IMG/VR virus record: IMGVR_UViG_2711768072_000014
Strand: one strand, 5' to 3'
Length of the DNA: 14,720 nucleotides
Origin: a virus
Taxonomy: Duplodnaviria; Heunggongvirae; Uroviricota; Caudoviricetes
In this document: positions 1-13,859 of the stretch, piece after piece
Layout of the letters: each line of letters starts with the position of its first letter
How positions within the stretch are numbered: the first letter of the stretch is position 1
Translations under genes and position numbers: made by a program
The notes under the pieces: model-generated
The model's input: the letters and a program-made list of their open reading frames with translations, nothing else
Told to the model about the DNA's origin: nothing
The model's database searches: none

Positions 1-1218
1 ATGAACAAACTGAGCGACACATTGCTAAGGAAACTTCATGGTAAGCCAGCGGAGAAAAACACGTTTTATAGTGATGGCGGAAACCTGAGCGTGAAATATT
101 TAACATCAGGGAAATTGACCTGGTATTTCACATACAGGGCCGGAACGGGAAGGGAGACACGACCCGAACGCATTAAGCTGGGAAGTTATCCTGATCTGAG
201 CCTGAAAGCAGCCAGGGAAAAAGCCGCACAGTGTCGCACATGGCTGGCTGAGGGGAAAAATCCACGTCATGAGATGAATTACACCGTACAGGAAGCGTTA
301 AAGCCCGTAACGGTTGGCGATGCGCTCACCTACTGGCTTGAGTATTACGTAAAGGAAAACCGCGTGGATTATATCGCCCTGAAAAGGCGACTTAATAATC
401 ACGTAATACAGCAGATTGGTGCTATGCCGCTGGATAAATGCGAGCTACGGCACTGGCTGGCCTGTTTTGACCAGGTGGCAAAGCGAACGCCTGTTACTGC
501 CGGATTCGTGCTACAGGCGTGCAAACAGGCGCTTAAGTTCTGCCGTAGGCGGCGCTATGCAATCAGCAACGTTCTGGACGATCTGAACGTGGCGGACGTT
601 GGGAAAAAACCGGATATAAGCGAACGTGTCTTAAGTAACAAAGAACTTGGCGAATTATTGCAGGCACTGGACAAAAAAATATTTTCCCCTTACTACGTCG
701 CGTTAATCCGCCTCCTGATTGTCTTCGGAGCCAGGACGGTAGAACTGAGGCTATCGGAGATCGGGGAGTGGGATTTTACGGAAATGCTATGGACCGTTCC
801 GAAGGAGCACAGCAAAACGAAGGTCGCAATATTCCGGCCCATACCGGAAGCGATCCTGCCGTTCGTCACGCAGCTGGTGGAGCAGAACAGGCACACGGGC
901 TTATTGCTGGGGGAAGCGAAACAGGAGGCCAGCGTATCGCAGTATGGAAGATTAGCGCACAGGAGGCTTAATCATCCTCACTGGTCACTGCATGACATCC
1001 GGCGCACCTTTACAACCATGCTGAACGATTTAGGCGTTGATCCGCATGTCGTGGAGCAGCTTACAGGTCATCAGATGCCAGGAATGCAGCGAGTTTATAA
1101 TCATTCCCGTTATCTGGATGCTAAACGCAATGCGCTGGATATGTGGACGGAGCGGTTAGGGATACTGGCGGGAACACATGAAAACGTAACCACGCTACCA
1201 GTAGCCAGAAGAAAATAA
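1..1218 (+). CDS. int: Tyrosine site-specific integrase, P4-like (N-terminal arm-binding domain plus C-terminal catalytic domain)
   Basis: 405-aa ORF. N-terminus FYSDGGNLSVKY...WYFTYR resembles the arm-type DNA-binding domain of P4-family integrases. C-terminus HDIRRTF...LTGHQ...RVYNHSRY carries the R/H/R/Y catalytic signature of tyrosine recombinases. Confidence 0.9.
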   Translation: MNKLSDTLLRKLHGKPAEKNTFYSDGGNLSVKYLTSGKLTWYFTYRAGTGRETRPERIKLGSYPDLSLKAAREKAAQCRTWLAEGKNPRHEMNYTVQEALKPVTVGDALTYWLEYYVKENRVDYIALKRRLNNHVIQQIGAMPLDKCELRHWLACFDQVAKRTPVTAGFVLQACKQALKFCRRRRYAISNVLDDLNVADVGKKPDISERVLSNKELGELLQALDKKIFSPYYVALIRLLIVFGARTVELRLSEIGEWDFTEMLWTVPKEHSKTKVAIFRPIPEAILPFVTQLVEQNRHTGLLLGEAKQEASVSQYGRLAHRRLNHPHWSLHDIRRTFTTMLNDLGVDPHVVEQLTGHQMPGMQRVYNHSRYLDAKRNALDMWTERLGILAGTHENVTTLPVARRK

Positions 1219-1592: not shown

Positions 1593-1781
1593 GTGTTAAG
1601 CACTGATCGGTTTATACGTGAAAAAGAATGCGAAAAGCTAACAGGCCTTAGCCGCTCATGCCGCTACCGCCTGGAAAAGGCCGGACAATTCCCATCACGT
1701 CGTAAACTTGGCGGTCGTTCCGTTGGCTGGTCTTTATCCGAGGTTCTGGCCTGGAAGGATAGCTGCAAGGCAGTTCATTAA
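1593..1781 (+). CDS. alpA: AlpA-family transcriptional regulator / excisionase-like small DNA-binding protein
   Basis: 62-aa ORF with GTG start at 1593 preceded by AGGGGG Shine-Dalgarno. Motif LTGLSRSCRYRLEKAGQFP...KLGGRSVGW matches the AlpA/MerR-type helix-turn-helix signature (LTGLSRSTIYRL..G.FP...LGGRSVRW). Confidence 0.85.
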   Translation: MLSTDRFIREKECEKLTGLSRSCRYRLEKAGQFPSRRKLGGRSVGWSLSEVLAWKDSCKAVH

Positions 1782-1927
1782 TCACGCTGGCGGCACACAG
1801 CCGCCACACATCAATCATCTGAACACAGAGCTATAACCATGAAGATTGAATATACGCCAGAACGTGGGCGGGGATTCGTTCGCCCTGGTGAGACTGGAAA
1901 ACCACAAAATTGGGGTTTTTCAGGCAT

Positions 1928-1955
1928 AAAAAAAGCGGCCCCGAAATGGAGCCGC
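1928..1955 (-). terminator. Putative intrinsic terminator for leftward (minus-strand) transcription
   Basis: GCGGC (1935-1939) pairs with GCCGC (1951-1955) around an 11-nt loop. On the minus strand the stem is followed by a U7 run (A-run 1928-1934 on +). Sits downstream of the minus-strand ORFs at 2051-2461. Confidence 0.35.
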
Positions 1956-2050
1956 CTTTCTGAACAGATAACCCGCTGCGCCGTTTGTGTGTGTGATCCC
2001 AAACATAAGCACGGGGATGATAGCCGCTATCAGGCTGGTGGGCAATGCAA

Positions 2051-2239
2051 TCAGTCTGGTTCAGTTCGTTGCCATACCTGCAATGAGCGCTTTTCCCTGT
2101 ACTCTTTAAGGAATTGCTCAAGGGCAAAAGCACATGGCGCGAATCTTTCTGATTCATGTTCTATCTTTCTGCGCCGTCTTTTCCGTGCCGGTGATAATGT
2201 TTTGGTCAATTCTTTATCGGTCATTGTGTTGTCCTGCAT
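2051..2239 (-). CDS. Hypothetical small basic protein (62 aa), possibly co-transcribed with the RHH gene
   Basis: ORF in the track. Very basic stretch (ARKRRRRK). Lies 42 nt downstream of the RHH gene on the same strand. No clear Shine-Dalgarno. Confidence 0.35.
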   Translation of the reverse strand: MQDNTMTDKELTKTLSPARKRRRRKIEHESERFAPCAFALEQFLKEYREKRSLQVWQRTEPD

Positions 2240-2281
2240 AGCAATGCGCCGTAATACCTTACACCACGGCGCTGATGGTGA

Positions 2282-2461
2282 TTACTCTGGTTCTTTGGCC
2301 TTGCGCCGCTGGCGATATTCAACTTCTCGTTTTAATGCTGCAGTAACAAATTGCCCCGTACTTTCGCCAGGCATTTTTACCGCCTCAACATTGTTCATAA
2401 CTTCATGCGGAACCCTTGCCGCAACGGTTTGTGATTTTGCGTTTACTGCTTTTGTCGCCAT
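2282..2461 (-). CDS. Small ribbon-helix-helix-like DNA-binding protein (59 aa), candidate repressor of the divergent operon; below the size cutoff of the ORF track
   Basis: Translated by hand from the reverse complement: MATKAVNAKSQTVAARVPHEVMNNVEAVKMPGESTGQFVTAALKREVEYRQRRKAKEPE. ATG at 2461-2459 with GAGGGG Shine-Dalgarno 8 nt upstream; stop TAA at 2284-2282. The pattern of a short strand (VAARVPHEV) followed by two helices, and the basic tail, fit an RHH (Arc/CopG-like) fold. Confidence 0.6.
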   Translation of the reverse strand: MATKAVNAKSQTVAARVPHEVMNNVEAVKMPGESTGQFVTAALKREVEYRQRRKAKEPE

Positions 2462-2511
2462 GTGGTGTACCCCTCATAAAAAACAAATGCAGTATGCAGG
2501 AAAAAAAATAA

Positions 2512-2563
2512 GTGTTCAACACTTGACGTGTTTAACACCTGGGTTTAAATTGGTGTTCAACAC
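2512..2563. promoter_or_regulatory. Operator array: three copies of the 11-bp palindrome GTGTT(C/T)AACAC overlapping a candidate rightward promoter
   Basis: Copies at 2512-2522 (GTGTTCAACAC), 2528-2538 (GTGTTTAACAC) and 2553-2563 (GTGTTCAACAC). -35 TTGACG at 2523-2528 and -10 TAAATT at 2546-2551 with 17-bp spacing. Sits between the divergent RHH gene (minus) and the rightward operon starting at about 2661. Confidence 0.6.
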
Positions 2564-2660
2564 CTTGTTGGCGCAAGGTGCAGAAACGACGAAACCCGGC
2601 AGTGCGCTAACACTAACCGGGCTTCTAACCACCAACGATAGCGAAAGTATCGAGGTAGCT

Positions 2661-2864
2661 ATGAGAAATAATACCACACACCCGCAAGGGCGGGACTCGC
2701 ACAACCTGAATAAATACATCTGGCGTTTTATCGCCCTGAGCACGGCACAACCGCGCGTGATTACCATTGAGGCCACCAGCGAACAGGAAGCACGCCAGCA
2801 ATCTCCGGCTGGCTGCGTGATGGTATTCGCTGCCCGTATTCGTCAGGAGGTGCGCCATGATTAA
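2661..2864 (+). CDS. Hypothetical protein (67 aa), possible first gene of the rightward operon
   Basis: In-frame ATG at 2661 preceded by GAGGT. Stop overlaps the start of the next gene by 8 nt. It is the only part of the long 1839-2864 ORF with a plausible start downstream of the promoter. Confidence 0.4.
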   Translation: MRNNTTHPQGRDSHNLNKYIWRFIALSTAQPRVITIEATSEQEARQQSPAGCVMVFAARIRQEVRHD

Positions 2865-3069
2865 TCTGTCACTTACTGACCTTAACCGCATTCAGTTTCG
2901 TGAGAAATTCACAGGGCAGCTACTGGTCAATGTGGATAAAGGTCGCGTGGTGTGTAATTACCACTTACCAGATGAAGCAATTGTCGCCACAAGGGAATCA
3001 TTACAGGAAATCACAAAACGTGCCGGAATGATTAACACGAATATTCAGGGGATGCTTTATGCACAATAA
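2857..3069 (+). CDS. Hypothetical protein (70 aa)
   Basis: ATG at 2857 with strong AGGAGG Shine-Dalgarno 6 nt upstream. Stop overlaps the next start. Confidence 0.6.
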   Translation: MINLSLTDLNRIQFREKFTGQLLVNVDKGRVVCNYHLPDEAIVATRESLQEITKRAGMINTNIQGMLYAQ

Positions 3070-3298
3070 AACCACACCGGACGCAGCCGCCGAAGCCATC
3101 AAAACGCTGATGCACGCGCTGATTGATATTTCTGTTATCGCGGACAGGGCACATAAGCACGCCACCAGCGAAACAGAATATGCCGGTGCTTTCGTTCCTC
3201 ACTCACTGGCTGTCATGCAATTTAGTGCTGATACGGCGCTGAATGAGGCCAAAGCTATCCTGATTGCTGATTGTGAAAATGGGGGGGGTTATGCGTGA
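3059..3298 (+). CDS. Hypothetical protein (79 aa)
   Basis: ATG at 3059 overlapping the upstream stop; AGGGGA upstream. Translationally coupled arrangement. Confidence 0.55.
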   Translation: MHNKTTPDAAAEAIKTLMHALIDISVIADRAHKHATSETEYAGAFVPHSLAVMQFSADTALNEAKAILIADCENGGGYA

Positions 3299-3524
3299 TG
3301 ATCGTTTTAATTCCCTGAAACAGGAATTTTCCGGCGTTCCTGATGATGCGGCTGATGCGCTTTCGTCAATGCCAGAACTTATTAGAGCGGCTTTTTTCTT
3401 ACTTTCCACGAGAGAATATAAATCAACGGGGCTTGATGTACTGAATATCGCCGCCGATTATGCGGAATATGTGGCAGAGGCGCGTTATAGAAGAAAATTT
3501 CCTGAGGATGTAAGCCATGCGTGA
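3291..3524 (+). CDS. Hypothetical protein (77 aa from ATG 3291; the track ORF begins at 3264 with TTG)
   Basis: ATG at 3291 preceded by a G8 run acting as Shine-Dalgarno and overlapping the upstream stop (ATGCGTGATGA). Start assignment is uncertain. Confidence 0.5.
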   Translation: MRDDRFNSLKQEFSGVPDDAADALSSMPELIRAAFFLLSTREYKSTGLDVLNIAADYAEYVAEARYRRKFPEDVSHA

Positions 3525-3750
3525 TATTTACCACCAAACAATAGACCGCGCATTTCTTGCACTTTCTCACAGTGAAAACATGCTGGAAATATTGCGCATA
3601 TGGCTTGAAACACTTGGCGACAATGAACGCGACAAACAAAAATCAAGAATTGCCACGGCATTAATAACGCTTCTTGAGCCTGTAATAATGGAACTGCAAG
3701 AAATAGATCTATTGCACGACAGATATAAAGAACAGCACACCGGAGAATAA
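3517..3750 (+). CDS. Hypothetical protein (77 aa)
   Basis: ATG at 3517 overlapping the upstream stop; GAGGA 8 nt upstream. Confidence 0.55.
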   Translation: MRDIYHQTIDRAFLALSHSENMLEILRIWLETLGDNERDKQKSRIATALITLLEPVIMELQEIDLLHDRYKEQHTGE

Positions 3751-3755
3751 AAATA

Positions 3756-4055
3756 ATGAAACTTAAATATTCTGGCTTAACTGCCAGTGGCAACACTCAC
3801 CCTAAATTTACGCGCGGTGATATTTACCGCGACCAGTACGGCGGCACGGTAATGATTAAGGGCGTGGCGGGACGGTGCGTAACTTACCGCCGTGAAGGTT
3901 ACGAATATGATTGCGTGATGCCTGTTTATCAGTTCCGGCGTGATTTTTCTCTGGTACAGACCGCGCCGCATAACGTGCCCACCAGCAACGCCAGGGCACG
4001 GGCAAACATCCAGAAGCTGAAAACCATGATTAACGGATTCAGGGGCAAGAAATGA
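3756..4055 (+). CDS. Hypothetical protein (99 aa)
   Basis: ATG at 3756 with GGAGA upstream. Stop overlaps the start of the replication gene (ATGA). Confidence 0.6.
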   Translation: MKLKYSGLTASGNTHPKFTRGDIYRDQYGGTVMIKGVAGRCVTYRREGYEYDCVMPVYQFRRDFSLVQTAPHNVPTSNARARANIQKLKTMINGFRGKK

Positions 4056-5449
4056 AAAGCGCACCGAACTTAAAAAAACAGCCTTACGACAAGATGACCG
4101 AAGTCATCATTTTTGCGGGTAGTGATGCGTGGGCACATGCGAAACAGTGGCAGGAACAGGACGGGCGACTGGCTGGCGATAATGTGCCTCCCATTGTGCT
4201 GGCTGATGATCAACTGGATGAACTGGCAGACCTGAGAATCATCGACGAGGGGCGCTATTGTGTCCGGCTGTACAAGGCAGGCCACATCAGGCCATCAAAT
4301 ATTAATGCCATTGCGCACAAGCTGGCGGCGGCGGGCGTAACTGATGCGAATTATTACCCCGAAGGGATACACAGCCAGAAGCGGGAGAACTGGCGCGAAT
4401 ATCTGGAACGGGAGCGGGGGAAAAAGCCAGGGGAAGAACACCACCAGCGAAAAACCACGCTACCGATGAGCGTTGGATCTGCCGGATACGACACGCAATT
4501 AGATTACGTGGTAAAGGGGATTATTCCGGCATCGTCGCTATGCAGCATATACGGGGCAAGCGGTTCCTATAAATCATTCCTTGCGGGTTCGTGGGCGTGT
4601 CACGTTTCCACGGGCCGCCAGTGGGGAGGCCGCAGGGTGGCGCATGGCGCTGTTCTCTATGTGGTTGGTGAAGGCGGTATCGGCGTTCCGCGTCGTGTAA
4701 AAGCCTGGGAGGTTGTGCACGGTGAGCAGGTGAAAAATCTGTATCTGGTAAACCGTCCAGTTTTTCCGGCTGTCCCGCTTGATGTTGATGAACTGGTTAT
4801 CGCTGCCCGTCAGGTGGAGCGGGAAACGGGTAAACCTGTACGCATGATTATTCTTGATACTCTGGCGCGTTGCTTTGGTGGCAATGATGAAAATGATTCC
4901 CGTGATATGGGGGCGTTTATCCGTGGGTGTGACGAGCTTAAACGGCGCACAGGGGCCACGGTGCTGGTGGTTCACCATTCCGGCAAGGATGAGACGAAAG
5001 GCGCGCGCGGTTCCAGTGCATTTCGTGCTTCGCTGGATGCTGAATACCGGATACGCAGGGAGGACGCAGGAAGCGAAGCGCTGGTTATCTCATGCACCAA
5101 AATGAAGGACGCGGAGGAACTCAAAGAGGCTGCCTATGATTTGCGGGTGGTGGAGCTTTTTACCGACGCTGACGGGGAGTTAATCACGTCGCTGGTGGTG
5201 GTGGATAAGCCGCGCCCTCCCGTTGAACTGGAGCGCATCGAGGAGGCAGGCAACAAGACGGAAAACCATACCGCACTATGGGGGTGCATCCGTTCACGCA
5301 CACAGAACGGCGACAAGTGCACGATCCCGCTGTTACGTGATGACATGAAACGGCTTGGGTATGACGTGAAAAATATGCGGCGATGGTTAGCCAAACTGGA
5401 AAAAGACGCCGTGATTTACATTGATGGTGATGATGTAGGACCACTGTAA
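4052..5449 (+). CDS. Replication protein with RecA-fold ATPase domain (AAA_25 / RepA-DnaB-like helicase type; PICI Pri-Rep-like)
   Basis: 465-aa ORF. Walker A-like YGASGSYKSF, Walker B-like MIILDTL and LVVHHSGKDETKG are arranged as in RecA-fold replicative ATPases of plasmids and satellites. Immediately followed by an iteron cluster. Confidence 0.8.
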   Translation: MKSAPNLKKQPYDKMTEVIIFAGSDAWAHAKQWQEQDGRLAGDNVPPIVLADDQLDELADLRIIDEGRYCVRLYKAGHIRPSNINAIAHKLAAAGVTDANYYPEGIHSQKRENWREYLERERGKKPGEEHHQRKTTLPMSVGSAGYDTQLDYVVKGIIPASSLCSIYGASGSYKSFLAGSWACHVSTGRQWGGRRVAHGAVLYVVGEGGIGVPRRVKAWEVVHGEQVKNLYLVNRPVFPAVPLDVDELVIAARQVERETGKPVRMIILDTLARCFGGNDENDSRDMGAFIRGCDELKRRTGATVLVVHHSGKDETKGARGSSAFRASLDAEYRIRREDAGSEALVISCTKMKDAEELKEAAYDLRVVELFTDADGELITSLVVVDKPRPPVELERIEEAGNKTENHTALWGCIRSRTQNGDKCTIPLLRDDMKRLGYDVKNMRRWLAKLEKDAVIYIDGDDVGPL

Positions 5450-6214: not shown

Positions 6215-6625
6215 ATGACAGCACAAATTGCAGCTTACGGGCGGCTGGTGGACGACCCGCTGGTAAAACAGAGCAGCAAGGGCACACCGATGACTCTGGC
6301 GCGTATGGCGGTATCGTTGCCATGCAGCCAGGCACATGACGGACAGGCGACGTTATGGTTATCGGTTATCGCATTTGGCAAACAGGCCGATTTCCTGGCT
6401 AAACATCAAAAAGGCGATGTTGCCAGCGTATCCGGCACGATGCAGGTAAGCCAGTGGACCGGACAGAACGGGGAAACGCGGCGGGGGTATCAGGTTATTG
6501 CAGACAGCGTAATCAGTGCCCGCGCGGCACGTCCAGGCGGGAACAGACGCAAAACCACAGGCACACAGGGTAATCAGCCACCAGCGGGAGGCGATGACCC
6601 TTACGGTGACGGTATTCCGTTCTGA
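6215..6625 (+). CDS. ssb: Single-stranded DNA-binding protein (short SSB with acidic C-terminal tail)
   Basis: 136 aa. Core WLSVIAFGKQADFLAKHQKGD...QWTGQNGETRRGYQV parallels the E. coli SSB OB-fold (WHRVVLFGKLAE...KWTDQSGQDRY). The C-terminus DDPYGDGIPF matches the SSB protein-interaction tail (DDDIPF). GAGGTGG Shine-Dalgarno. Confidence 0.8.
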   Translation: MTAQIAAYGRLVDDPLVKQSSKGTPMTLARMAVSLPCSQAHDGQATLWLSVIAFGKQADFLAKHQKGDVASVSGTMQVSQWTGQNGETRRGYQVIADSVISARAARPGGNRRKTTGTQGNQPPAGGDDPYGDGIPF

Positions 6626-6635
6626 GGGGGTGACG

Positions 6636-6884
6636 ATGGTACATGACCGCACAGCGGAGGAACTCGAGGCAAAAGGCTTTTACCGGAGGGCGTCGGCGCG
6701 ATGGGGTGAAGTCATGCAACTGGTGGAGACAGACAAGGAACGGCATCAGGTTACGATGCGACGGCTGGAATGTTCCAGGAAGGCACAGAGGCCACCGGAG
6801 CCGCCAACGGAGAACTACGCAGACCTGAGAAATGCAGTAAATCGCACTTACGCAGACATGGGGCTGAGCAAATTAGCAGAGTAG
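6636..6884 (+). CDS. Small putative transcriptional regulator, PerC-like (tentative family assignment)
   Basis: 82 aa from ATG 6636, with GGGGG upstream just after the SSB stop. Motif AEELEAKGFYRRASARWGEVM resembles the LEAKG-x-RRAA-x-RW motif I recall for PerC/Pch-family activators; this is a recollection, not a search. The track ORF starting at 6516 overlaps ssb and is taken as an unlikely extension. Confidence 0.5.
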   Translation: MVHDRTAEELEAKGFYRRASARWGEVMQLVETDKERHQVTMRRLECSRKAQRPPEPPTENYADLRNAVNRTYADMGLSKLAE

Positions 6885-6907
6885 GAATATCAGAACCACA
6901 CCACGCA

Positions 6908-6938
6908 GCCGGAGCAATCCGGCTTTTTGTTATTTTTT
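6908..6938 (+). terminator. Intrinsic terminator after the PerC-like gene
   Basis: GCCGGA (6908-6913) pairs with TCCGGC (6918-6923) around a GCAA loop, followed by TTTTTGTTATTTTTT. Confidence 0.6.
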
Positions 6939-7150
6939 GTAAATTATTTGTTCGTGGTTGTTCCACGTTGTTCACTGAGCGGATCGGCATATTTTACCCG
7001 AACTGAATCATGATTATTCTCGCCCGTGGTGCCAGGACGCTGGGGCCACTTTCCTGCCTGTTAATGTGCCCGCCAATATTCATTACCAGGCGGGAAAACG
7101 ATCGGTGCGATTACTGATTTCCTTATGAAAAACGGTTGAGTGTTTGCCGC

Positions 7151-7189
7151 GTCCTGGAGTTCCTTACTTAACCCCAGGACTTTTTTTTT
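7151..7189 (+). terminator. Terminator-like hairpin plus T9 run abutting the capsid gene start codon (candidate attenuator)
   Basis: GTCCTGG (7151-7157) pairs with CCAGGAC (7174-7180); T9 at 7181-7189; ATG at 7190. No Shine-Dalgarno between the hairpin and the start. Confidence 0.4.
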
Positions 7190-8347
7190 ATGCAGAGAAT
7201 AATCGAATTACGCCAGCAGAAAACCGCCATTAAAAATCAGATGCGCGACATGCTGGAGAACGCTGAAAAAGAAAACCGCAGTCTTAACGATGCTGAGGGC
7301 GCAAAATTTGACGAATTACGCGCTAAAGCTGAATCCCTCGATAAAGACATTTCCCGCCTTGAAGCCATTGCAGACGAAGAGCGCAGCAAGCCAGGTAAAA
7401 GCAGCCAGACCACTGACCCCGCAGAACTACGCAGCTACATTCTGACAGGTGAAACCCGCGCATTAAGTACAGGCGTTCCCGCTGATGGTGGTTATACCGT
7501 TATCCCCGAACTGAACACCGAAATCATGCGAATGCTGGCGGATGAATCCACCATGCGCCGCATCTGTACCGTGAAGAAAATCAGCAGCAACGAGTTTAAG
7601 CAGCTTGTTTCCGCTGGCGGTGCGACCGTTAACCACGGTGAAGAGGGTAAGGCACGCGAACAGACCAGCACCCCGCAGATTAACGAGGTGAGCATTAAGC
7701 TGTATCCGGTCTATGCGTACCCGCGCACCACGCAGGAAATCGTGGATTTTTCCGATGTGGACATCCTTTCATGGCTGACGGGCGAGATTGGCGACACCTT
7801 CACGGAAACCGAAGAAAGCGATCTGGTTGTGGGCGACGGTGACAAAAAAGCAAAAGGTTTTTTATCCGTACCCCGTGCAGAGAAGAACGACAAAGAGCGT
7901 GATTTTGGTACGTTGCAGGTAATTAAACCTTCCGAATCTCTGGCGTGGACATCTGCGGACCCGCTGATCGACCTGAAATTTGCATTACGTAAAAAATACC
8001 GCAAAAACGCGGTCTGGGTGGTTAACTCCACGACGGCCGCAAAACTTCAGAAGGTGAAGAACGCGAACGGTGATTACATCTGGCGCGACCGTTTACAGGC
8101 GGGTGATCCTGATACGTTGCTGGGCCTTCCGGTCGAATATCTGGAGTTTATGCCTGATAACGTTATTGCCCTGGGTGACTTCAAACGCGGTTACTACATT
8201 GTTGATCACGAAACAGGTGTTCGCACCAGACCGGACAACCTCACAGAGCCGGGCTTCATCAAAATTTTCACGCAGAAATATTTAGGCGGTGGCGTGGTGG
8301 ATTCGAACGCGATCAAGATTCTGGAACTGCCACAGGACGACGATTAA
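7190..8347 (+). CDS. Major capsid protein, HK97 fold, with N-terminal coiled-coil scaffolding (delta-like) domain
   Basis: 385 aa. The first ~100 residues are charged and helical (ELRQQKTAIKNQMRDMLENAEKE...DKDISRLEAIADEE), as in HK97-type delta domains. The remainder has a typical HK97-family capsid composition. No separate scaffold gene is present. Followed by protease and portal. Confidence 0.88.
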   Translation: MQRIIELRQQKTAIKNQMRDMLENAEKENRSLNDAEGAKFDELRAKAESLDKDISRLEAIADEERSKPGKSSQTTDPAELRSYILTGETRALSTGVPADGGYTVIPELNTEIMRMLADESTMRRICTVKKISSNEFKQLVSAGGATVNHGEEGKAREQTSTPQINEVSIKLYPVYAYPRTTQEIVDFSDVDILSWLTGEIGDTFTETEESDLVVGDGDKKAKGFLSVPRAEKNDKERDFGTLQVIKPSESLAWTSADPLIDLKFALRKKYRKNAVWVVNSTTAAKLQKVKNANGDYIWRDRLQAGDPDTLLGLPVEYLEFMPDNVIALGDFKRGYYIVDHETGVRTRPDNLTEPGFIKIFTQKYLGGGVVDSNAIKILELPQDDD

Positions 8348-8357
8348 CAGCATACAG

Positions 8358-8386
8358 AAGGGGCTTAAAAGCCCCTTTAGTGTTTT
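8358..8386 (+). terminator. Terminator-like hairpin between capsid and protease genes (possible partial terminator setting capsid:protease stoichiometry)
   Basis: AAGGGGC (8358-8364) pairs with GCCCCTT (8371-8377) around a TTAAAA loop, followed by a T-rich tail TAGTGTTTT directly before ATG 8387. Confidence 0.4.
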
Positions 8387-8959
8387 ATGGGTGAAAAAAT
8401 TATGAAGAGTATGGAAATCCGGTCATCGGAAATCACTACCAGCGGAGCCGGTACGCTGACGGGCTACGTTGTTCGCTGGGATAAGCTTTCAGAACTGCTA
8501 TGGGGGGAGTTTTACGAAAAATTCCAGCGGGGGGCGTTTACTGAGTGGCTTGCGGCGGATAATGACGTTCGCGGCCTGTATGAGCATGACCACAGCATGT
8601 TACTGGGGCGCACCCGTTCCGGCACGCTGAAACTGGAAGAGGACGAAACAGGGTTACGCTTTGAACTGACCCCACCGGATACCAGTACAGGGCGCGACGT
8701 TATCGAACTGGTTAAACGAGGTGATATATCCGGCATGAGCTTTGGCTTTCGTTCCCGTAAGGATGTATGGGATACCACAACAGATCCATGCGTGCGCACC
8801 GTGCTGGTGGCGGAACTGTACGAAATTACCGTTACATCCGTACCGGCTTACCCTGATTCCGGCGTGGAGCTGGCCCGCCGCTCCCTGTACGAGCAGCACC
8901 CCGAAAAAATGCCGCGTGCGGATAATCGCCGCTGGTGGGCGGATTTAGCGGGGGTGTGA
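8387..8959 (+). CDS. Prohead maturation protease, HK97 family (S78-type)
   Basis: 190 aa. Motifs GYVVRWD, YEHDHS, GMSFGF and VPAYPDS parallel HK97 gp4-type prohead proteases (GYAAVFD, WAHD, GLSIGF, FPAN). Start may instead be ATG 8402 or 8411. Confidence 0.85.
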   Translation: MGEKIMKSMEIRSSEITTSGAGTLTGYVVRWDKLSELLWGEFYEKFQRGAFTEWLAADNDVRGLYEHDHSMLLGRTRSGTLKLEEDETGLRFELTPPDTSTGRDVIELVKRGDISGMSFGFRSRKDVWDTTTDPCVRTVLVAELYEITVTSVPAYPDSGVELARRSLYEQHPEKMPRADNRRWWADLAGV

Positions 8960-8960
8960 T

Positions 8961-10172
8961 ATGTGGCCTTTCAGAAGAAAAAAAGAGCAGCGCAGCATGA
9001 CGCTTGATGAGTTTATGGCGCTGGCCGGCACATCGAACACGGGGGCTGGTGAGTACGTATCATCGGGGACAGCGGAATCACTGCCCGCCGTCATGAACGC
9101 CGTCACGGTCATCTCTGAGGCGGTGGCTACCATGCCGTGTTACCTGTACCTGGTACGCAATGAGAAGGGGAAGGAGGCCCGAGAGTGGCTTGATTCTCAT
9201 CCGGTCGATCACATCCTCAACGAGCGCCCGAACGCATGGCAAACCCCCTACCAGTTTAAGCGAATGATGATCCGCCACTGCCTGTTAAACGGTAATGCTT
9301 ACGCGGTGATTCAGTGGGGGCGTGATGGTTTTCCGGCGGCTTTACATCCTTACCCGCCGCAGTCGGTGAACGTGGAGCAGACAGGTGAGCATAACTGGCG
9401 CTATTGCATCACTGACGCCTACACCGGAAACACCCGCAACTATTTACCGTGGGAGGTTCTCCACCTTCGTTACTCCACGGATGACGGTTTTATGGGGCGC
9501 TCACCTGTAACCATCTGCCGCGAATCGCTGGGGCTTGGGCTGGCCCAACAACGCCACGGCGCGAGCGTGATGCGTGATGGCATGATGGCGGCAGGGGTTA
9601 TCACGTCAGGCGAATGGCTGGACGGCGTGAAGGGCAAACAGGCATTAGCCGCACTGGAACGCTACAAAGGGGCCAGAAACGCCGGAAAAACGCCCATCCT
9701 TGAAGGGGGTATGAGCTATCAGCAGCTGGGCATGAGTAATCAGGATGCTGAATGGCTGGCCTCCCGTCGCTTCACCATTGAAGACATCGCCCGAATGTTC
9801 AACGTCTCGCCGATTTTTTTGCAGGAATACAGCAACAGCACCTACAGCAATTTCAGCGAGGCAAGCCGCGCATTTCTCACCATGACGATGCGCCCGTGGC
9901 TGGCGAACTTTGAGCAGCAGATAAAAAACGCCCTGCTGGTGGCCTCACCTGTACCTGGTATCCGGTATCAGGTGGAGTTTGACAGCGCGGACCTGTTACG
10001 GGCCACTCCTGGCGAACGCTTTGCCACCTATGAACGCGGCATCAAATCCGGCGTTATGTGCCCGAACGAAGCCCGCGAACGTGAAGGGCTGTCCCCGCGT
10101 GATGGTGGTGATGAGTTCAGCCAGGCATGGAAACAGGAAGTAAAAATCAGCGAGGGAGAAAAACCGGAATGA
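8961..10172 (+). CDS. Portal protein, HK97 family
   Basis: 403-aa ORF. ATG overlaps the protease stop; GGGGGT Shine-Dalgarno. Size, position between protease and adaptor, and composition fit HK97-type portals. Confidence 0.85.
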   Translation: MWPFRRKKEQRSMTLDEFMALAGTSNTGAGEYVSSGTAESLPAVMNAVTVISEAVATMPCYLYLVRNEKGKEAREWLDSHPVDHILNERPNAWQTPYQFKRMMIRHCLLNGNAYAVIQWGRDGFPAALHPYPPQSVNVEQTGEHNWRYCITDAYTGNTRNYLPWEVLHLRYSTDDGFMGRSPVTICRESLGLGLAQQRHGASVMRDGMMAAGVITSGEWLDGVKGKQALAALERYKGARNAGKTPILEGGMSYQQLGMSNQDAEWLASRRFTIEDIARMFNVSPIFLQEYSNSTYSNFSEASRAFLTMTMRPWLANFEQQIKNALLVASPVPGIRYQVEFDSADLLRATPGERFATYERGIKSGVMCPNEAREREGLSPRDGGDEFSQAWKQEVKISEGEKPE

Positions 10173-10507
10173 ACATAGGGCGACTGCGTGACAGGGTAAC
10201 GATTCAGACCCTGAAACAGACCAGGGATATAACCGGCGAAATACTCGAAACGTGGGTGGACGGTCACACACTCTGGGCAAGCGTGAACATGATCAGCAGC
10301 AAGGAGGCCATTTCATCGGGTGCAGAACTGGCGACTGGAACGGTAAGGATATGGATACGCTACAGGAAGGACATCAACGCCACCAGCCGGATAAAGGTCA
10401 ATACGGGGCCGCTGGCGGGGCGTGTACTGAATATCATCGGGCAGCCGCTGCCGGATGCCGCCAGGACACGCCTTGAAATTCTTTGTCGTGAGGGCGCGGA
10501 AAAATGA
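10169..10507 (+). CDS. Head closure / head-tail joining protein
   Basis: 112 aa from ATG 10169, which overlaps the portal stop (ATGA). N-terminal RLRDRVTIQ...W..VWASV pattern is typical of phage head-tail joining proteins. The track ORF starts at 10127 inside the portal gene. Confidence 0.7.
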   Translation: MNIGRLRDRVTIQTLKQTRDITGEILETWVDGHTLWASVNMISSKEAISSGAELATGTVRIWIRYRKDINATSRIKVNTGPLAGRVLNIIGQPLPDAARTRLEILCREGAEK

Positions 10508-10800
10508 CAGAAGAACTTATCACCCTGGAAGAAGTGAAACTCCATTGCCGCATCGATGGCGACGAGGAAGACCAGTTAATCAGCGGATACATCGCCGCAT
10601 CGCTTGAGGCGTGCCAGATACACATAGGCAGGCGCTTTGATGACGGGCTGGAGTTCACGCCAGCCATAAAGATTGGCTGCATGATGTTTATCGCTCACCT
10701 GTATGAAAATCGCCAGATTGTCGCGGATAACGCAAAAACACGCGTACCCATGACGATTGGTGCACTCTGGACGGCTTACCGTGATGTGGGGGTGTACTGA
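10504..10800 (+). CDS. Head-tail connector protein, gp6-like
   Basis: 98 aa. N-terminal LITLEEVKLHCRIDGDEEDQLISGYIAAS resembles gp6-like connector proteins (L.LEE.K.HLRID...D.LI). ATG overlaps the upstream stop. Confidence 0.7.
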   Translation: MTEELITLEEVKLHCRIDGDEEDQLISGYIAASLEACQIHIGRRFDDGLEFTPAIKIGCMMFIAHLYENRQIVADNAKTRVPMTIGALWTAYRDVGVY

Positions 10801-11240
10801 TGCCGTGGCAACCATTAAGACGATGCACAGAACCAGGCTGTAACAGGCGCGTGAAGTCCGGCAAGTGTGAGGAGCACAGGCGGGCGGCATGGCGTGCAGA
10901 GGATGCCAGACGAGGACACCGCCGCGCGCGTGGGTACTCCAGACAGTGGGACAAATACCGCGCCATGTATCTGAGTAAAAACCCGTTATGCGTGCGATGC
11001 CTTGAGAAGGGGATATATACGCCCGCCGTGGTGGTGGATCACATTATCCCGATTAATGGCGGTGATGATGTTCTCTTCTGGCCCGAATGGAACCATCAGC
11101 CATTGTGCCAGGCGTGCCATAACCAGAAAACGAAATGGCTTGATCCGGCAACAAAAAGCAAGCGTGCCGCAGGTGGATTTCGTGAAGAGGAAGAACGGGC
11201 CGCTAACCGCAATAACTGGATGTATGACGCTGATGAATGA
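10800..11240 (+). CDS. HNH endonuclease (packaging-associated)
   Basis: 146 aa. CxxC...CxxC zinc-binding cysteines and VDHIIPINGG...NHQPLCQACHNQKT match the HNH motif (DH..P....N.Q.LC..CH..K). Located immediately upstream of terS as in HK97-like cos phages. Confidence 0.9.
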   Translation: MPWQPLRRCTEPGCNRRVKSGKCEEHRRAAWRAEDARRGHRRARGYSRQWDKYRAMYLSKNPLCVRCLEKGIYTPAVVVDHIIPINGGDDVLFWPEWNHQPLCQACHNQKTKWLDPATKSKRAAGGFREEEERAANRNNWMYDADE

Positions 11241-11406
11241 GCGGGAACAAAACCGCCTTATCCGTGGACTTATAAGGCAGCGTGACGCATGGAAGACACA
11301 GGAAACAGGGCATAAAGATAAAGCGTCAGGACGCGCAGAACGCATCACAGCGAAGCGATTAACCGACCGTGACTGCGAGGTTATGGAATGTTTCCGCAAT
11401 CGCTGA

Positions 11407-11529
11407 TGAGGCTGTATGACGGGGTGGGGGGCGTTTTCAGGACAAACCCGACCCCGCCGGGCACCGACCGCCTCCTCAAATTTTTATGCACGGGAATTTT
11501 TTGAAAAATAATCTGGCGAAAAAATAAGC
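11407..11529. other. Candidate cos / packaging-recognition region between HNH and terS
   Basis: 123-bp intergenic region with G/C-rich runs (GGGGTGGGGGGCG at 11421-11433; CCCGACCCCGCCGGGCACCGACCGCC at 11447-11472) followed by an AT-rich stretch. This is the position where HK97-like cos phages carry cos. Confidence 0.35.
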
Positions 11530-11886
11530 ATGGCAAGACCACCGAAAGCCCCCGCCTACCTGGATGATATCGCCGTGAAGCAGTGGCGGGAAAAATCGCG
11601 GCAGCTTGCGGAACGGGGAGACCTTACCCCCGCCGACTGGAGTAATCTGGAACTGTATTGTGTCAACTACTCCATTTACCGGAAAGCCGTTGCAGACCTT
11701 GCGGCGCGCGGGTTCAGCATTGTTAACAGTCAGGGCGGCGAGAGCAGAAACCCCGCATTAAGCGCAAAATCCGACGCTGAAAGAGTGATGATAAAAATGG
11801 CCTCTTTGCTCGGTTTTGACCCGATAAGCCGCCGTAAAAATCCACCGGAAACAGAAGAAGAGGACGAGCTTGACCGCCTGGAATAA
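11530..11886 (+). CDS. terS: Terminase small subunit, P27 family
   Basis: 118 aa. Pattern W...LAERGDLTPADWSNLELYCVNYSIYRKA...LGFDPISRRK is typical of P27-family small terminases. Directly precedes and overlaps the large terminase. Confidence 0.85.
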   Translation: MARPPKAPAYLDDIAVKQWREKSRQLAERGDLTPADWSNLELYCVNYSIYRKAVADLAARGFSIVNSQGGESRNPALSAKSDAERVMIKMASLLGFDPISRRKNPPETEEEDELDRLE

Positions 11887-13531
11887 GTACGCAGAAGACG
11901 TAAAAACGGGCAAAATTCCGGCCTGTAAACGGCTGAAACAGGCCGTTAAACGGTACTTTTCGGACCTTGAAAGCCCCCTTTACACGTTCGATCGTGAGGT
12001 TGTGGAGCGGTTTATTGCCTTTTCCAGGGTGTGCCCGCACGTAAAAGGCGCAATGCGCGGTAGCCCCATTGAGCTGGAGCCGTGGCAGCAGTTCGCCTTT
12101 GCGTGCATCCTCGGCTTTAAGGTTAAGGCCACCGGACGGCGCAAATACACGAGCGCCTTTATCGAAGTGCCGCGCAAAAATGCGAAATCCACGACCGCCG
12201 CGATTCTGGCTAACTGGTTTTTGATTATGGAGAACGGTCAGCAGGATATCTACACCGCAGCGGTGAGCCGTGACCAGGCGCGGATCGTCTTTGATGATGC
12301 GCGTCAGATGTGCCTTTTATCCCGACCGTTACGCAGGCGGGTGAATATTCAGGCGCATAAGGTGATACACCCGAAAAGCAACAGCCTGTTAAAGCCGCTG
12401 GCAGCAAAAGCGGCAACCATTGAAGGTACAAACCCGAGTCTTGCCATTGTGGATGAATATCACCTGCACCCTGACAACGGGGTTTATTCCGCGCTTGAAC
12501 TGGGAATGGGGGCGCGTCCGGAGGGGCTGTTATTTGCCATCACCACATCGGGGAGCAACGTTGTTTCAGCCTGTAAACAACACTACGACTATTGCTGCCA
12601 GATACTGGATGGTGAAGAGGTGAACGAATCCATGTTCGTGCTGATTTACGAGCTGGATGATGAAAGCGAGGTTGACGATCCGGCGATGTGGATAAAGGCG
12701 AATCCCAATATCGATGTTTCCGTCGATCGTGAAAAACTGGCCTCAACCATCCAGAAAGCGCGGGGAATACCGTCGCAGTGGGTGGAGATGATGACAAAGC
12801 GATTTAATATCTGGTGCCAGGGGGCTACCCCGTGGATGGGTAACGGCGCATGGGCTGAGTGTGCCGGAACGTTCACGGAGGAAGATTTACACGGCCAGGA
12901 GTGTTACGCGGGGCTGGATTTATCATCAACCAGCGATATTTCCAGCGTATGCTATGCCTTTCCGGTCGGTAAAACCATTATGCTGATTTCCCGTCATTAT
13001 CTGCCGGAGTTCCAGCTACAGAACCCCGCCAATAAAAACCGCGCTGTCTATCGTCAGTGGGCTAAAGCGGGCTGGATACGCACAACGCCTGGCGACTGCA
13101 TTGATTACGACCGGATCAGAGATGACATCATGCAGGACGCGGAGAAATTTCATATCAGGCTGGTGGGCTTTGATACGTGGAACGCCACGCATCTCAGAAC
13201 GCAATTACAGGGGGCAGGTTTTGAGGTGGAGCCGTTCCCGCAAACCTACCTCAGATTCAGTCCGGCGGCGAAATCGTTCGAAGTTTTTGTTAACCGCAGG
13301 GTGATTGTGCATCGTGGCGATCCGGTGTTGTCCTGGTCGATGAGTAACGTCGTGATGCAGAGTGACGCGAACGCCAATATCAAGCCGAACAAGAAAAAAT
13401 CACCGAACAAGATAGACCCGAGCGTAGCGGCGCTGATGGCGTTTGGTACATTCCAGGCAGAGCATGAGGATTTTGCTTTTGATATAAGCGACAGCCACCG
13501 CCAGAAACTGGAAGAATTTAGCGGGGTGTAA
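11870..13531 (+). CDS. terL: Terminase large subunit (ATPase plus nuclease domains)
   Basis: 553 aa. Walker A-like VPRKNAKSTTAA in the N-terminal ATPase region, acidic motifs (IVDEYH) and a C-terminal nuclease-like region. TTG start at 11870 preceded by GAGGA, overlapping terS. Confidence 0.9.
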   Translation: MTAWNKYAEDVKTGKIPACKRLKQAVKRYFSDLESPLYTFDREVVERFIAFSRVCPHVKGAMRGSPIELEPWQQFAFACILGFKVKATGRRKYTSAFIEVPRKNAKSTTAAILANWFLIMENGQQDIYTAAVSRDQARIVFDDARQMCLLSRPLRRRVNIQAHKVIHPKSNSLLKPLAAKAATIEGTNPSLAIVDEYHLHPDNGVYSALELGMGARPEGLLFAITTSGSNVVSACKQHYDYCCQILDGEEVNESMFVLIYELDDESEVDDPAMWIKANPNIDVSVDREKLASTIQKARGIPSQWVEMMTKRFNIWCQGATPWMGNGAWAECAGTFTEEDLHGQECYAGLDLSSTSDISSVCYAFPVGKTIMLISRHYLPEFQLQNPANKNRAVYRQWAKAGWIRTTPGDCIDYDRIRDDIMQDAEKFHIRLVGFDTWNATHLRTQLQGAGFEVEPFPQTYLRFSPAAKSFEVFVNRRVIVHRGDPVLSWSMSNVVMQSDANANIKPNKKKSPNKIDPSVAALMAFGTFQAEHEDFAFDISDSHRQKLEEFSGV

Positions 13532-13544
13532 TGAGGTCAGCAGC

Positions 13545-13826
13545 ATGACAGAAGCCGAAATACTGCGATTAATCCGCCGCGTCTCTGGAATCAGCCAGCA
13601 GCATGACGAACAGGCCACGCAGCCGGACAGCGTGACCGCCGAAAATTATGCGCGTGTTGTTGCTGAGGTGATGCGCCGTGATGGTATCCAGCTTAATGAT
13701 GTGGATATGCGCAACATACGGATCCGCGTTCTTGAAATGCTGGCCTACCGTCGCCGCGTGCAGACGTACAGGGAAAAAGCAAAAATTACGTACCACTGGA
13801 AGAAGCCGGAGCGGTTACGGCGGTAA
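13545..13826 (+). CDS. Hypothetical protein (93 aa), last gene before the noncoding right end
   Basis: ORF in the track. GAGG 9 nt upstream of ATG. No recognisable motif. Confidence 0.5.
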   Translation: MTEAEILRLIRRVSGISQQHDEQATQPDSVTAENYARVVAEVMRRDGIQLNDVDMRNIRIRVLEMLAYRRRVQTYREKAKITYHWKKPERLRR

Positions 13827-13831
13827 CTGGT

Positions 13832-13859
13832 TGAACTTAAAGCAAAGCGCAAAATTGCG
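13832..13859. repeat. 28-bp perfect direct repeat, copy 1 (TGAACTTAAAGCAAAGCGCAAAATTGCG)
   Basis: Identical to 14051-14078; start-to-start distance 219 bp. Contains the internal inverted repeat GCGCAA..TTGCG. Confidence 0.9.

Follow-up and report, generated by a model that had tools for sequence, protein, structure and literature searches.

A six-gene chain before the replication gene of an Escherichia coli phage satellite: a proposed early operon with a candidate repressor and a candidate antisense RNA

Introduction

What is encoded by the small, overlapping genes that lie directly before the replication gene of a phage satellite, and how might their expression be held back until the satellite is induced? 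We take up this question for positions 2,661 to 4,055 of a 14,720-nucleotide stretch of viral DNA, IMG/VR record IMGVR_UViG_2711768072_000014 (the window, by which we mean the whole stretch), where six short open reading frames (ORFs), here called O1 to O6, follow one another on the plus strand. By gene content and nucleotide identity the window is an E. coli phage satellite, namely a capsid-forming phage-inducible chromosomal island (cf-PICI, PICI being the wider class) of the EcCIEDL933 type. A useful reference is Sp7 of E. coli O157:H7 Sakai, which is the same element as OI-51 and CP-933C (Flockhart et al. 2012, PMC3378721), and whose EDL933 copy, EcCIEDL933, is the prototype capsid-forming PICI (Alqurainy et al., bioRxiv 10.1101/2022.09.08.507074).

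The reading that we favour, and to which we give a probability of roughly 0.6, is that the block would be the half of the island's early (replication) operon that lies next to the promoter, gated in two layers, at the promoter by the product of a divergently transcribed YlcI/YnfO-family gene and at the ribosome-binding site of O1 by an antisense RNA. What is new in the block itself is its combination of alleles, the operon and the kind of satellite both being known; two genes had been named before, and the product of one, RgdR, has been characterised experimentally. The less expected parts are a SymR-like antisense RNA on the Icd-like leader ORF, allele-matched pairs of YlcI gene and operator, and a tract of consecutive G residues (poly-G) within the chain.

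A chain of six genes leading into rep

A sequence-only reading of the window had proposed that six co-oriented, chained ORFs lie immediately upstream of the replication gene and are real, co-translated genes, and both parts of this stand. All six ORFs are initiated at ATG (Table 1), although the ORF listing has O4 starting at an upstream TTG (3264). O1 and O2 share 8 nucleotides (ATGATTAA), O2 and O3 share 11, and O3/O4 and O4/O5 share 8 each (ATGCGTGA); a gap of 5 nucleotides separates O5 from O6, and O6 overlaps the replication gene, rep, by the four nucleotides ATGA. O1 is the first ORF after the predicted promoter, and the chain of 8-nucleotide overlaps starts there. Shine-Dalgarno-like motifs (spacing in brackets) are GAGG (5) for O1, AGGAGG (6) for O2, AGGGG (7-8) for O3, the G-run itself for O4, GAGGA (8-9) for O5, GGAG (10; the weakest) for O6 and AGGGG (6) for rep, and no convincing intrinsic terminator was found inside the block.

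Related loci were collected by anchoring on RgdR, the protein of which O6 is the apparent orthologue (see below), and 82 further loci (given L numbers here) were fetched in this way; a single-protein RgdR search of genome contigs had returned only 2 loci, such a query catching only close relatives. Homologues of each ORF recur in the same order in up to ~80 of the related loci, so the conservation across related elements that the earlier reading had named as a check is found. The pooled ratio of nonsynonymous to synonymous substitution (dN/dS) in the annotated frame is 0.45 for O1, 0.41 for O2, 0.13 for O3, 0.18 for O4, 0.38 for O5 and 0.27 for O6, as against about 0.7-2.4 in the two shifted frames. 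All six ORFs are under in-frame purifying, not diversifying, selection, and because their order is conserved and their dN/dS is specific to the annotated frame, they are genes and not chance ORFs; the same two lines of evidence rule out spurious ORFs and pseudogenes. The count of six does depend on the length of a poly-G tract, since O3 and O4 form a single ORF of 154/155 residues in sister elements.

A further ORF of 341 residues (1839-2864, plus strand), of which O1 is the in-frame 3' end, was considered and is almost certainly spurious: opposite it, on the minus strand, lie two conserved genes that have family matches. Its counterpart appears as ECs_1576 in the Sakai annotation, and RefSeq marks it partial or pseudo in other genomes.

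A candidate antisense RNA over the O1 ribosome-binding site

The earlier reading had found no recognisable motif in any of the six products, which does not hold for two of them: O6 belongs to DUF4222 (discussed below), and O1 matches the NCBIfam model NF033153 (phage_ICD_like) over residues 19-62 with 69.8 bits against a cutoff of 25 (E 1.4e-19). This family bears the title 'host cell division inhibitor Icd-like protein', and O1 also falls in phrog_6196. By this profile match O1 belongs to the Icd type; inhibition of cell division is what the family name says, and that name is an annotation. A literature search on Icd-like proteins yielded nothing of use. Satellite P4 has the same domain (7.8e-21) in the corresponding place, behind vis, as the C-terminal portion of the old coding sequence (CDS) 'cI, 137 aa'; PHROGs labels the family of O1 'transcriptional repressor', probably because the domain sits in that P4 'cI' CDS. 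In the related loci the Icd-like gene comes in two allele classes, about 51% identical to each other.

As the icd-type ORF follows an immunity RNA in both P1 and P4, the O1 leader was scanned for RNAs. No C4 or isrK RNA was found in the window by the Rfam scan. On the minus strand, positions 2588-2660 align to model positions 1-77 of Rfam symR (RF01809) with 33.3 bits (E 1.4e-4 in a search of 461 nucleotides, 0.021 in one of 68 kb), the match stopping 1 nucleotide before the O1 ATG and taking in the Shine-Dalgarno site. The 80-nucleotide candidate RNA (2581-2660) is predicted to fold with a minimum free energy of -35.1 kcal/mol (z -4.55), none of 200 shuffles being as stable.

Comparison of leaders adds evidence for an RNA on the minus strand. 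Among 21 leader variants stem 1 is constant and its loop freely variable, and hairpin 2 occurs in at least five sequence versions, each of them paired, with the T-rich tail kept. Minus-strand folds reach -34 to -39 kcal/mol as against -20 to -24 for their plus-strand complements, the G.U pairs of stem 1 being A.C mismatches on the opposite strand. A covariance model built from O1-type leaders only returned 84 full-length matches from 88 sources, every one on the minus strand and some in leaders outside the model, such as that of the Sakai type (L004; 50.5 bits, E 6e-11). Over 44 distinct sequences 90.4% of cells are paired, compared with 34-54% in controls with slid partners; nine pairs have changed on both sides against a shuffle mean of 4.5 (0/500 shuffles), and the covariation score is 0.211 against 0.141 (0/500 shuffles), with all slid controls lower. 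A -10 hexamer (TATGAT, TATAAT, TATTAT or TATGCT) occupies a fixed position, -13..-8, in three otherwise unrelated leader classes; in the window it is TATTAT (2668-2673), with TG upstream. The element precedes virtually all Icd-like genes of the related loci, Sakai Sp7 included (L004 3427-3506). Its conserved structure, covariation and thermodynamic stability together argue for a structured RNA, which would be transcribed from the predicted promoter.

The arrangement is that of SymR and its target symE, where SymR is transcribed from a promoter within symE, whose translation it blocks (Kawano et al. 2007, PMC1891008). Both RNAs are antisense and ~77-80 nucleotides long, with two hairpins and a terminator, both have their promoter, a predicted one in the window, among the opening codons of the target, and both are antisense to the Shine-Dalgarno and start region of the target. 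The targets differ, O1 being Icd-like and SymE having the AbrB fold, and no LexA box was noticed in the window, none having been searched for. Homology between the two RNAs is unproven, and the likeness is one of architecture and geometry. No earlier description of the RNA was found in Rfam at threshold or by a literature search on CP-933C small RNAs, and it appears to have been previously unannotated.

Promoter, operators and the divergent YlcI/YnfO unit

The other proposed layer of control lies in the 200-nucleotide divergent region upstream of O1, where a sigma70-like promoter is accompanied by three palindromes (Table 1). The palindrome GTGTT(C/T)AACAC occurs in all 14 loci that carry the window-type YlcI allele (at least 96% identity) and in none of the 43 with other alleles, a co-variation that is independent of the AlpA allele (64-100%) and of the Icd allele (51-100%). 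With one different YlcI allele the operators, arranged alike, are of another type, CTGGAATCCAG/GTGGATTCCAC/CTGGAATCCAG. A repressor gene paired with its cognate operators shows this pattern, which makes the YlcI/YnfO protein a candidate operator-binding repressor of the block.

Table 1. Features of the window that bear on the proposed early operon, with neighbouring genes, in order of position
Feature	Position	Strand	Remarks
Tyrosine integrase (int)	1-1218		First gene of the window
alpA, AlpA-family regulator	1593..1781	+	Pfam Phage_AlpA, 5e-18
Two conserved genes, one of the YlcI/YnfO family	2051..2461	-	
Small partner gene of the YlcI/YnfO unit	2051-2239	-	
YlcI/YnfO-family gene	2282-2461	-	NCBIfam NF041551, 2.1e-16
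Three palindromes, GTGTT(C/T)AACAC (putative operators)	2512, 2528, 2553 (2512..2565)		Bracket or overlap the promoter -35 and -10
Sigma70-like promoter, TTGACG-17-TAAATT	2523..2551	+	Consensus match only; for the O1-to-rep operon
Candidate cis-antisense small RNA, two hairpins and U-rich tail	2581..2660	-	Complementary to the O1 leader and Shine-Dalgarno
Extended -10 (TGGTATTAT) of the antisense RNA	2668..2676	-	In O1 codons 3-6; read from sequence
O1, Icd-like protein	2661..2864	+	67 residues, isoelectric point (pI) 10; first ORF of the operon
O2, accessory cassette (phrog_340)	2857..3069	+	70 residues
O3, N-terminal helical-hairpin half of a 154-residue 'prophage protein' (phrog_2512)	3059..3298	+	79 residues
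Hypervariable poly-G tract (G8), O3/O4 junction	3281..3288	+	Gly linker codons; doubles as the O4 Shine-Dalgarno-like site
O4, C-terminal helical half of the same phrog_2512 protein	3291..3524	+	77 residues
O5, acidic helical protein (phrog_2196)	3517..3750	+	77 residues
O6, RgdR orthologue (DUF4222)	3756..4055	+	99 residues, pI 10.2
rep, RepA-type (AAA_25) replication helicase	4052..5449	+	Pfam AAA_25, 4.7e-44
PerC-family (PchE-like) transcriptional regulator	6516-6884	+	Pfam PerC, 8.5e-35; downstream of ssb

Comparison with P1 and P4 and a model for gating

In phage P1 the c4 RNA is said to block translation of icd and thereby expression of ant, by way of Rho-dependent polarity. The immI operon of P1 and P7 consists, in order, of the c4 antisense RNA, icd and ant (Biere, Citron & Schuster 1992; Riedel et al. 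1993). As in the window, an ORF of the Icd family is the first, translationally coupled cistron and the downstream genes drive a lytic or induction programme; a small RNA acting on the icd ribosome-binding region gates the operon there, which by analogy makes such gating a candidate for the window. The two differ in that the RNA of the window would come from the opposite strand, with no processed sense-strand C4 RNA, and in that none of the genes downstream is an antirepressor.

The left operon of P4 offers a second comparison, its order being vis, the isrK/C4(CI) RNA, the Icd-like/Ash CDS, epsilon, orf151, cnr and alpha. Here too a regulator of the AlpA/Vis kind, a regulatory RNA, an Icd-like domain and several small genes precede a primase/helicase, although the CI RNA of P4 is read from the sense strand. 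RNAs of the isrK and C4/CI type, in sense orientation and above Rfam thresholds, lie before the Icd-like gene in P4 (L087 8420-8705) and in L006 (3353-3541), which is an RgdR-bearing element of E. albertii. Set against the antisense RNA of the window, these sense RNAs suggest that related satellites use different RNA regulators at the same place. The resemblance to P4 does not extend to the small genes: none of O1-O6 has a Pfam match to epsilon (PF25738) or Cnr (DUF5375), BLASTP against P4 proteins in a six-sequence database gave E values of at least 0.005, and homology of the block proteins to P4 epsilon, ORF151 or Cnr is unsupported by either method. Residues 8-52 of P4 ORF151 (L087 7440-7895), GEIYR...YRRKFSIL, weakly resemble GDIYR...FRRDFSLV of RgdR (BLASTP E 0.035-0.2 in a tiny database), and Pfam gives ORF151 no DUF4222.

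Under the reading that we favour, transcription would start at the sigma70-like promoter, amid the three operators of the divergent YlcI/YnfO protein, and would run without a terminator through O1-O6 into rep. The overlapping or abutting ORFs would pass ribosomes along, such that the whole chain, rep included, would depend on translation of O1. The promoter would be repressed by the YlcI/YnfO protein, and the O1 ribosome-binding site would be blocked by the constitutively promoted antisense RNA, with translation and polarity gating of the kind described for P1; the RNA would thus silence the operon until overtaken by transcription that is helper-induced and AlpA-dependent. In the PICIs of Gram-negative bacteria, AlpA acts as the helper-induced activator of island genes (Fillol-Salom 2018), and we infer the same dependence for the promoter of the window. 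The products made upon induction would be small modulators, O1 of the Icd type, O2-O5 exchangeable, and O6 most likely a cofactor associated with polymerase and DNA.

Several points weigh against this model. The match to SymR, at 33.3 bits, lies below the gathering score of 61 and nothing is returned in gathering mode, while the alignment used for covariation had been fitted to the model, so that its pair counts are biased upwards. The direction of the antisense transcript is toward YlcI, and it could be, alone or in addition, the 5' leader or attenuator of that gene. A second copy of the RNA stands beside a duplicated module of a hypothetical gene and a YlcI/YnfO gene in L001 (2434-2514) and also in L014, L016, L023, L031 and L057; these second copies have no intact Icd-like gene beside them, which bears on whether the RNA belongs to the YlcI unit. 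The plus-strand promoter matches the consensus at 9 of 12 positions, and the scan gave no more sites than shuffled sequence; both promoters and both RNA ends are predictions from sequence only. The co-variation of operator and YlcI allele, finally, could reflect mere physical linkage within one recombination module.

RgdR and its coupling to rep

O6 matches Pfam DUF4222 (PF13973) with 82.1 bits against a cutoff of 27 (E 2.1e-23) and is 77.8% identical over residues 1-99 to RgdR (ECs1581, also written ECs_1581), of which it is by sequence the orthologue. The two proteins agree in length (99 residues), in the domain, in the RGD motif at residues 20-22 (R20-G21-D22 in O6), in the K35 and R61 of the active protein, and in position, their genes running into the start of the replication gene in islands of one kind. 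They differ in that O6 has A10 and R45, as do the CFT073 and ED1a variants, and in that the downstream rep encodes a RepA/AAA_25 helicase in the window and a DUF927 primase in Sakai. Among 45 homologues G21 and D22 are invariant and R20 is variable.

RgdR was described as a basic protein of 99 residues that activates the LEE1 promoter (LEE, locus of enterocyte effacement) independently of Ler, raises type III secretion and lowers motility; its DNA binding is non-specific, it has a part in sheep colonisation, and its activity changes with single residues, at positions 20 and 35 (PMC3378721). It is reportedly encoded by all E. coli PICIs analysed (Fillol-Salom 2018). The predicted structure is a Tudor/SH3-like barrel with a basic C-terminal helix, and the closest compact structural neighbours of this model are the RNA-polymerase-binding Tudor domains of UvrD/PcrA, CarD/CdnL and the KOW domain of Spt5, among them 7egs, the C-terminal domain of UvrD bound to the RNA polymerase lobe; its neighbours in BFVD are all uncharacterised or DUF1653. 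From these Tudor-like neighbours, together with the published non-specific DNA binding and promoter-level activation, we propose that RgdR may be a CarD-like cofactor acting on RNA polymerase and DNA. The proposal is possible but doubtful, because the Tudor-like fold is very common; if it held, binding to polymerase would explain the published global effects (LEE1 up, motility down).

The coupling of RgdR to rep raises an alternative, namely that O5 and RgdR, and perhaps O3/O4, are accessory factors of replication that would regulate Rep or load it at the origin of the island, as Cnr does for P4 alpha, with the virulence phenotypes as side effects of a basic protein that binds DNA. RgdR always stands directly before rep, and the ATGA overlap is found in 86/86 loci. 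With the opening ~120 residues of Rep, RgdR makes up a single conserved module (3741-4417 is 77% identical in nucleotide sequence to Sakai L004 4290-4975, and the Rep N-terminus of ~120 residues is 68% identical in amino-acid sequence between window and Sakai), which is joined to two unrelated bodies, the AAA_25 RepA of the window and the DUF927 primase of Sakai, with differing flanks. The basic character of the protein, its non-specific DNA binding and the equivalent position of Cnr in P4 would fit such a role as well. Yet RgdR shows no sequence relationship to Cnr/DUF5375, it acts in trans on LEE1 and motility without induction of the island, and a single residue change switches its activity; the neighbours of its model are polymerase-binding Tudor domains, not initiator cofactors; and replication of EcCICFT073 is reported to need only int, alpA and pri-rep (Fillol-Salom 2018). 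We consider a replication accessory role quite unlikely.

The published phenotypes of RgdR suggest in turn that the block might be mainly 'moron' cargo of benefit to the host, with RgdR and the PerC homologue of the island tuning LEE type III secretion and motility. Deletion of rgdR or of OI-51 lowers type III secretion, adherence and colonisation of sheep, and is complemented in trans (PMC3378721), and the PerC-family protein is encoded in the window too. RgdR orthologues are, however, present in LEE-negative commensal, uropathogenic and Shigella strains as well as in all analysed E. coli PICIs, the fixed and coupled position before rep speaks for a role primarily in the cycle of the satellite itself, and the other five genes have no link to virulence, so that this explanation seems very improbable.

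Exchangeable genes in the middle of the block

Across the related loci a single order recurs: an Icd-like gene of either class, a variable middle, O4, O5, RgdR and rep. The variable middle is O2, or genes like ECs_1578, or genes like ECs_1579, or one of two allele classes of O3; one architecture has a 74-residue O3, a 127-residue O2-like protein and a stand-alone O4. O2 is missing from most relatives, the 127-residue variant lying between O3 and O4 in other elements. The block is thus a mosaic, with the Icd-like gene, O5 and RgdR as its core and the middle genes as exchangeable cassettes. O5 always adjoins RgdR; its Sakai counterpart, ECs_1580, is just 26% identical and in the same place.

Both the start of O4 (3291-3299) and that of O5 (3517-3525) read ATGCGTGAT (MRD...) and share the same ATGCGTGA stop/start overlap, and some O3O4 homologues (P0186) carry an O5-like C-terminus (...HTGE), which suggests recombination between these junctions.

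Profile searches, which the earlier reading had named as a means of checking the block, gave known families for O1 and O6, and phrog_340, phrog_2512 and phrog_2196 for O2, O3/O4 and O5; in Pfam and PHROG scans the 127-residue O2-like variant, the fused O3O4 and the Sakai cassettes matched only families labelled 'unknown function'. A sensitive search with O5 found only 9 representative clusters among 1.84 billion proteins and no link to any known family, and among solved structures no sequence relative of O1, O2, O3O4, O5 or O6 was found with E < 0.79. Searches of 50,697 phage records by tblastn, and by megablast of the region, returned no phage homologue of O2, O3O4, O5 or O6 but for one weak DUF4222 match. 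By these searches O2, O3O4, O5 and RgdR are satellite-specific and confined essentially to Escherichia and Shigella. As a whole O2-O5 are acidic or neutral, O3, O4 and O5 being acidic, and helices are predicted for O3-O4; most likely these four would act as protein-binding modulators of host or helper.

It is here that a third explanation, raised by the earlier reading, has to be weighed, that O2-O5 or the whole block are arms-race cargo with helper-sensing, helper-interference or anti-defence functions, the small acidic proteins binding and neutralising proteins of the helper phage or of host defence. The block occupies the position of the helper-derepression gene epsilon in P4, and some cf-PICIs are reported to carry an epsilon homologue; O3, O4 and O5 are acidic and predicted or likely to be helical; elements that are otherwise alike exchange the middle genes as cassettes, and these genes are absent from the phage records searched; and the hypervariable O3/O4 tract described in the next section would suit a contingency function. 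Against this, PADLOC-DB defence profiles gave 0 families at E <= 1 for the six proteins, rep and three downstream ORFs, and there is no Pfam match to P4 Derepression or to known anti-defence families. Selection on the genes is purifying, not diversifying, the O5 family is extremely narrow but well conserved, and the papers on cf-PICIs place the presumed immune cargo elsewhere in the island. We think this explanation unlikely.

A hypervariable poly-G tract at the O3/O4 junction

Homopolymeric-tract contingency, or phase-variable, loci are known in Neisseria, Haemophilus and Campylobacter, and such homopolymer tracts are unusual in E. coli. The tract at the junction of O3 and O4 shares with these loci that a coding poly-G differs in length between otherwise identical alleles and thereby shifts the frame. 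It differs in that an out-of-frame length here yields two separately initiated proteins and does not turn a gene off, coupling to the downstream genes being kept.

O3 aligns to the first half, and O4 to the second, of the 154-residue protein of PHROG 2512. With G7 or G10 the two are fused into a protein of 154/155 residues (...CENGG(G)VMRDD...); with G8, as in the window, they are split into 79 + 77 residues, with G9 into 86 + 77, and G11 also splits them. The fused alleles are diverse (79-99% identity) and come from both E. coli and E. albertii. Among 80 IMG/VR contigs the lengths are G7 in 23, G8 in 33, G9 in 18, G10 in 3 and G11 in 3, and in five groups of loci with identical flanks of 225+235 nucleotides (460 in all) the number of G residues is the only difference; the flanks of the G8 tract of the window are identical to those of four G7 loci (L047, L049, L055 and L056). 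Homopolymer sequencing error may inflate the variation in some records; in-frame G10 alleles with many member sequences (P0167) indicate that the length change is real. In two loci the tract is interrupted.

The fraction of tracts that are in frame, 32.5%, is indistinguishable from the one-third expected if length drifts freely and neutrally. Both halves of the protein are nonetheless strongly constrained, at the dN/dS values given above. Whatever the length of the tract, O4 has an ATG of its own, and in some architectures it stands as a gene by itself. Every tract state is likely tolerated, since O4 retains this ATG and a G-rich Shine-Dalgarno-like site, and since the stop/start overlap preserves coupling. 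In a low-confidence AlphaFold model of O3O4 (mean predicted local distance difference test score, pLDDT, 58) the tract would encode a disordered Gly linker between two helical hairpins. For those who annotate such genomes, the gene pair of 79 + 77 residues and the gene of 154 residues are the same locus.

The element and its setting

The window as a whole agrees with the satellite context that the earlier reading had assumed. Its capsid-to-terminase (packaging) module, 6906-13834, is 97.8% identical in nucleotide sequence to that of Sakai Sp7, and the int-alpA region is 92.6% identical. After rep the genes run in the order ssb, the PerC-family gene, HK97-type capsid, protease, portal, connectors, HNH, TerS and TerL, so that PICI-type int, alpA and rep are combined with the element's own capsid, protease, portal, connectors, HNH, TerS and TerL, the gene set of a cf-PICI. 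In the window, which starts at int with the left flank lying outside, no tail or lysis genes were found, and past terL there is just one small ORF before the right-end homology to Sp7.

The window shares with EcCIEDL933 the same succession of int-alpA, small-gene block, rep, ssb-PerC and the capsid, protease, portal, connector, HNH, TerS and TerL genes, whereas the central module is swapped: the window has the YlcI/YnfO gene, an Icd-like allele that is 51% identical, O2-O3-O4 in place of ECs_1578/1579, an O5 that is 26% identical to ECs_1580, and a different type of rep. Helper-dependent induction, and transfer in the element's own small capsids, have been demonstrated for EcCIEDL933 only (bioRxiv 10.1101/2022.09.08.507074). 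The satellite is of a very common kind in E. coli: partial matches to positions 2400-4300 were obtained from 1,870 of the 5,426 complete genomes of that species, the best with 97% identity over 90% of the query and none of them identical. With RgdR and the PerC-family protein, the island encodes members of two families of LEE regulators.

Implications

The Tudor-like fold predicted for RgdR suggests a testable mechanism for a type III secretion regulator of enterohaemorrhagic E. coli whose mode of action has been open since 2012. More broadly, we put forward tentatively, rating it somewhat below even odds, the combined claim that E. coli PICIs and cf-PICIs silence their early operon by a hitherto undescribed two-layer switch, made up of a YlcI/YnfO repressor and a SymR-like antisense RNA, together with a poly-G contingency locus that toggles an early protein between a fused and a split form. 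If this is true, the tract would be an instance of a contingency locus in a phage satellite, and the switch would supply the 'missing repressor' of Gram-negative PICIs; the pairs of YlcI/YnfO gene and operator, with the antisense RNA, are testable candidates for what keeps these islands quiescent.

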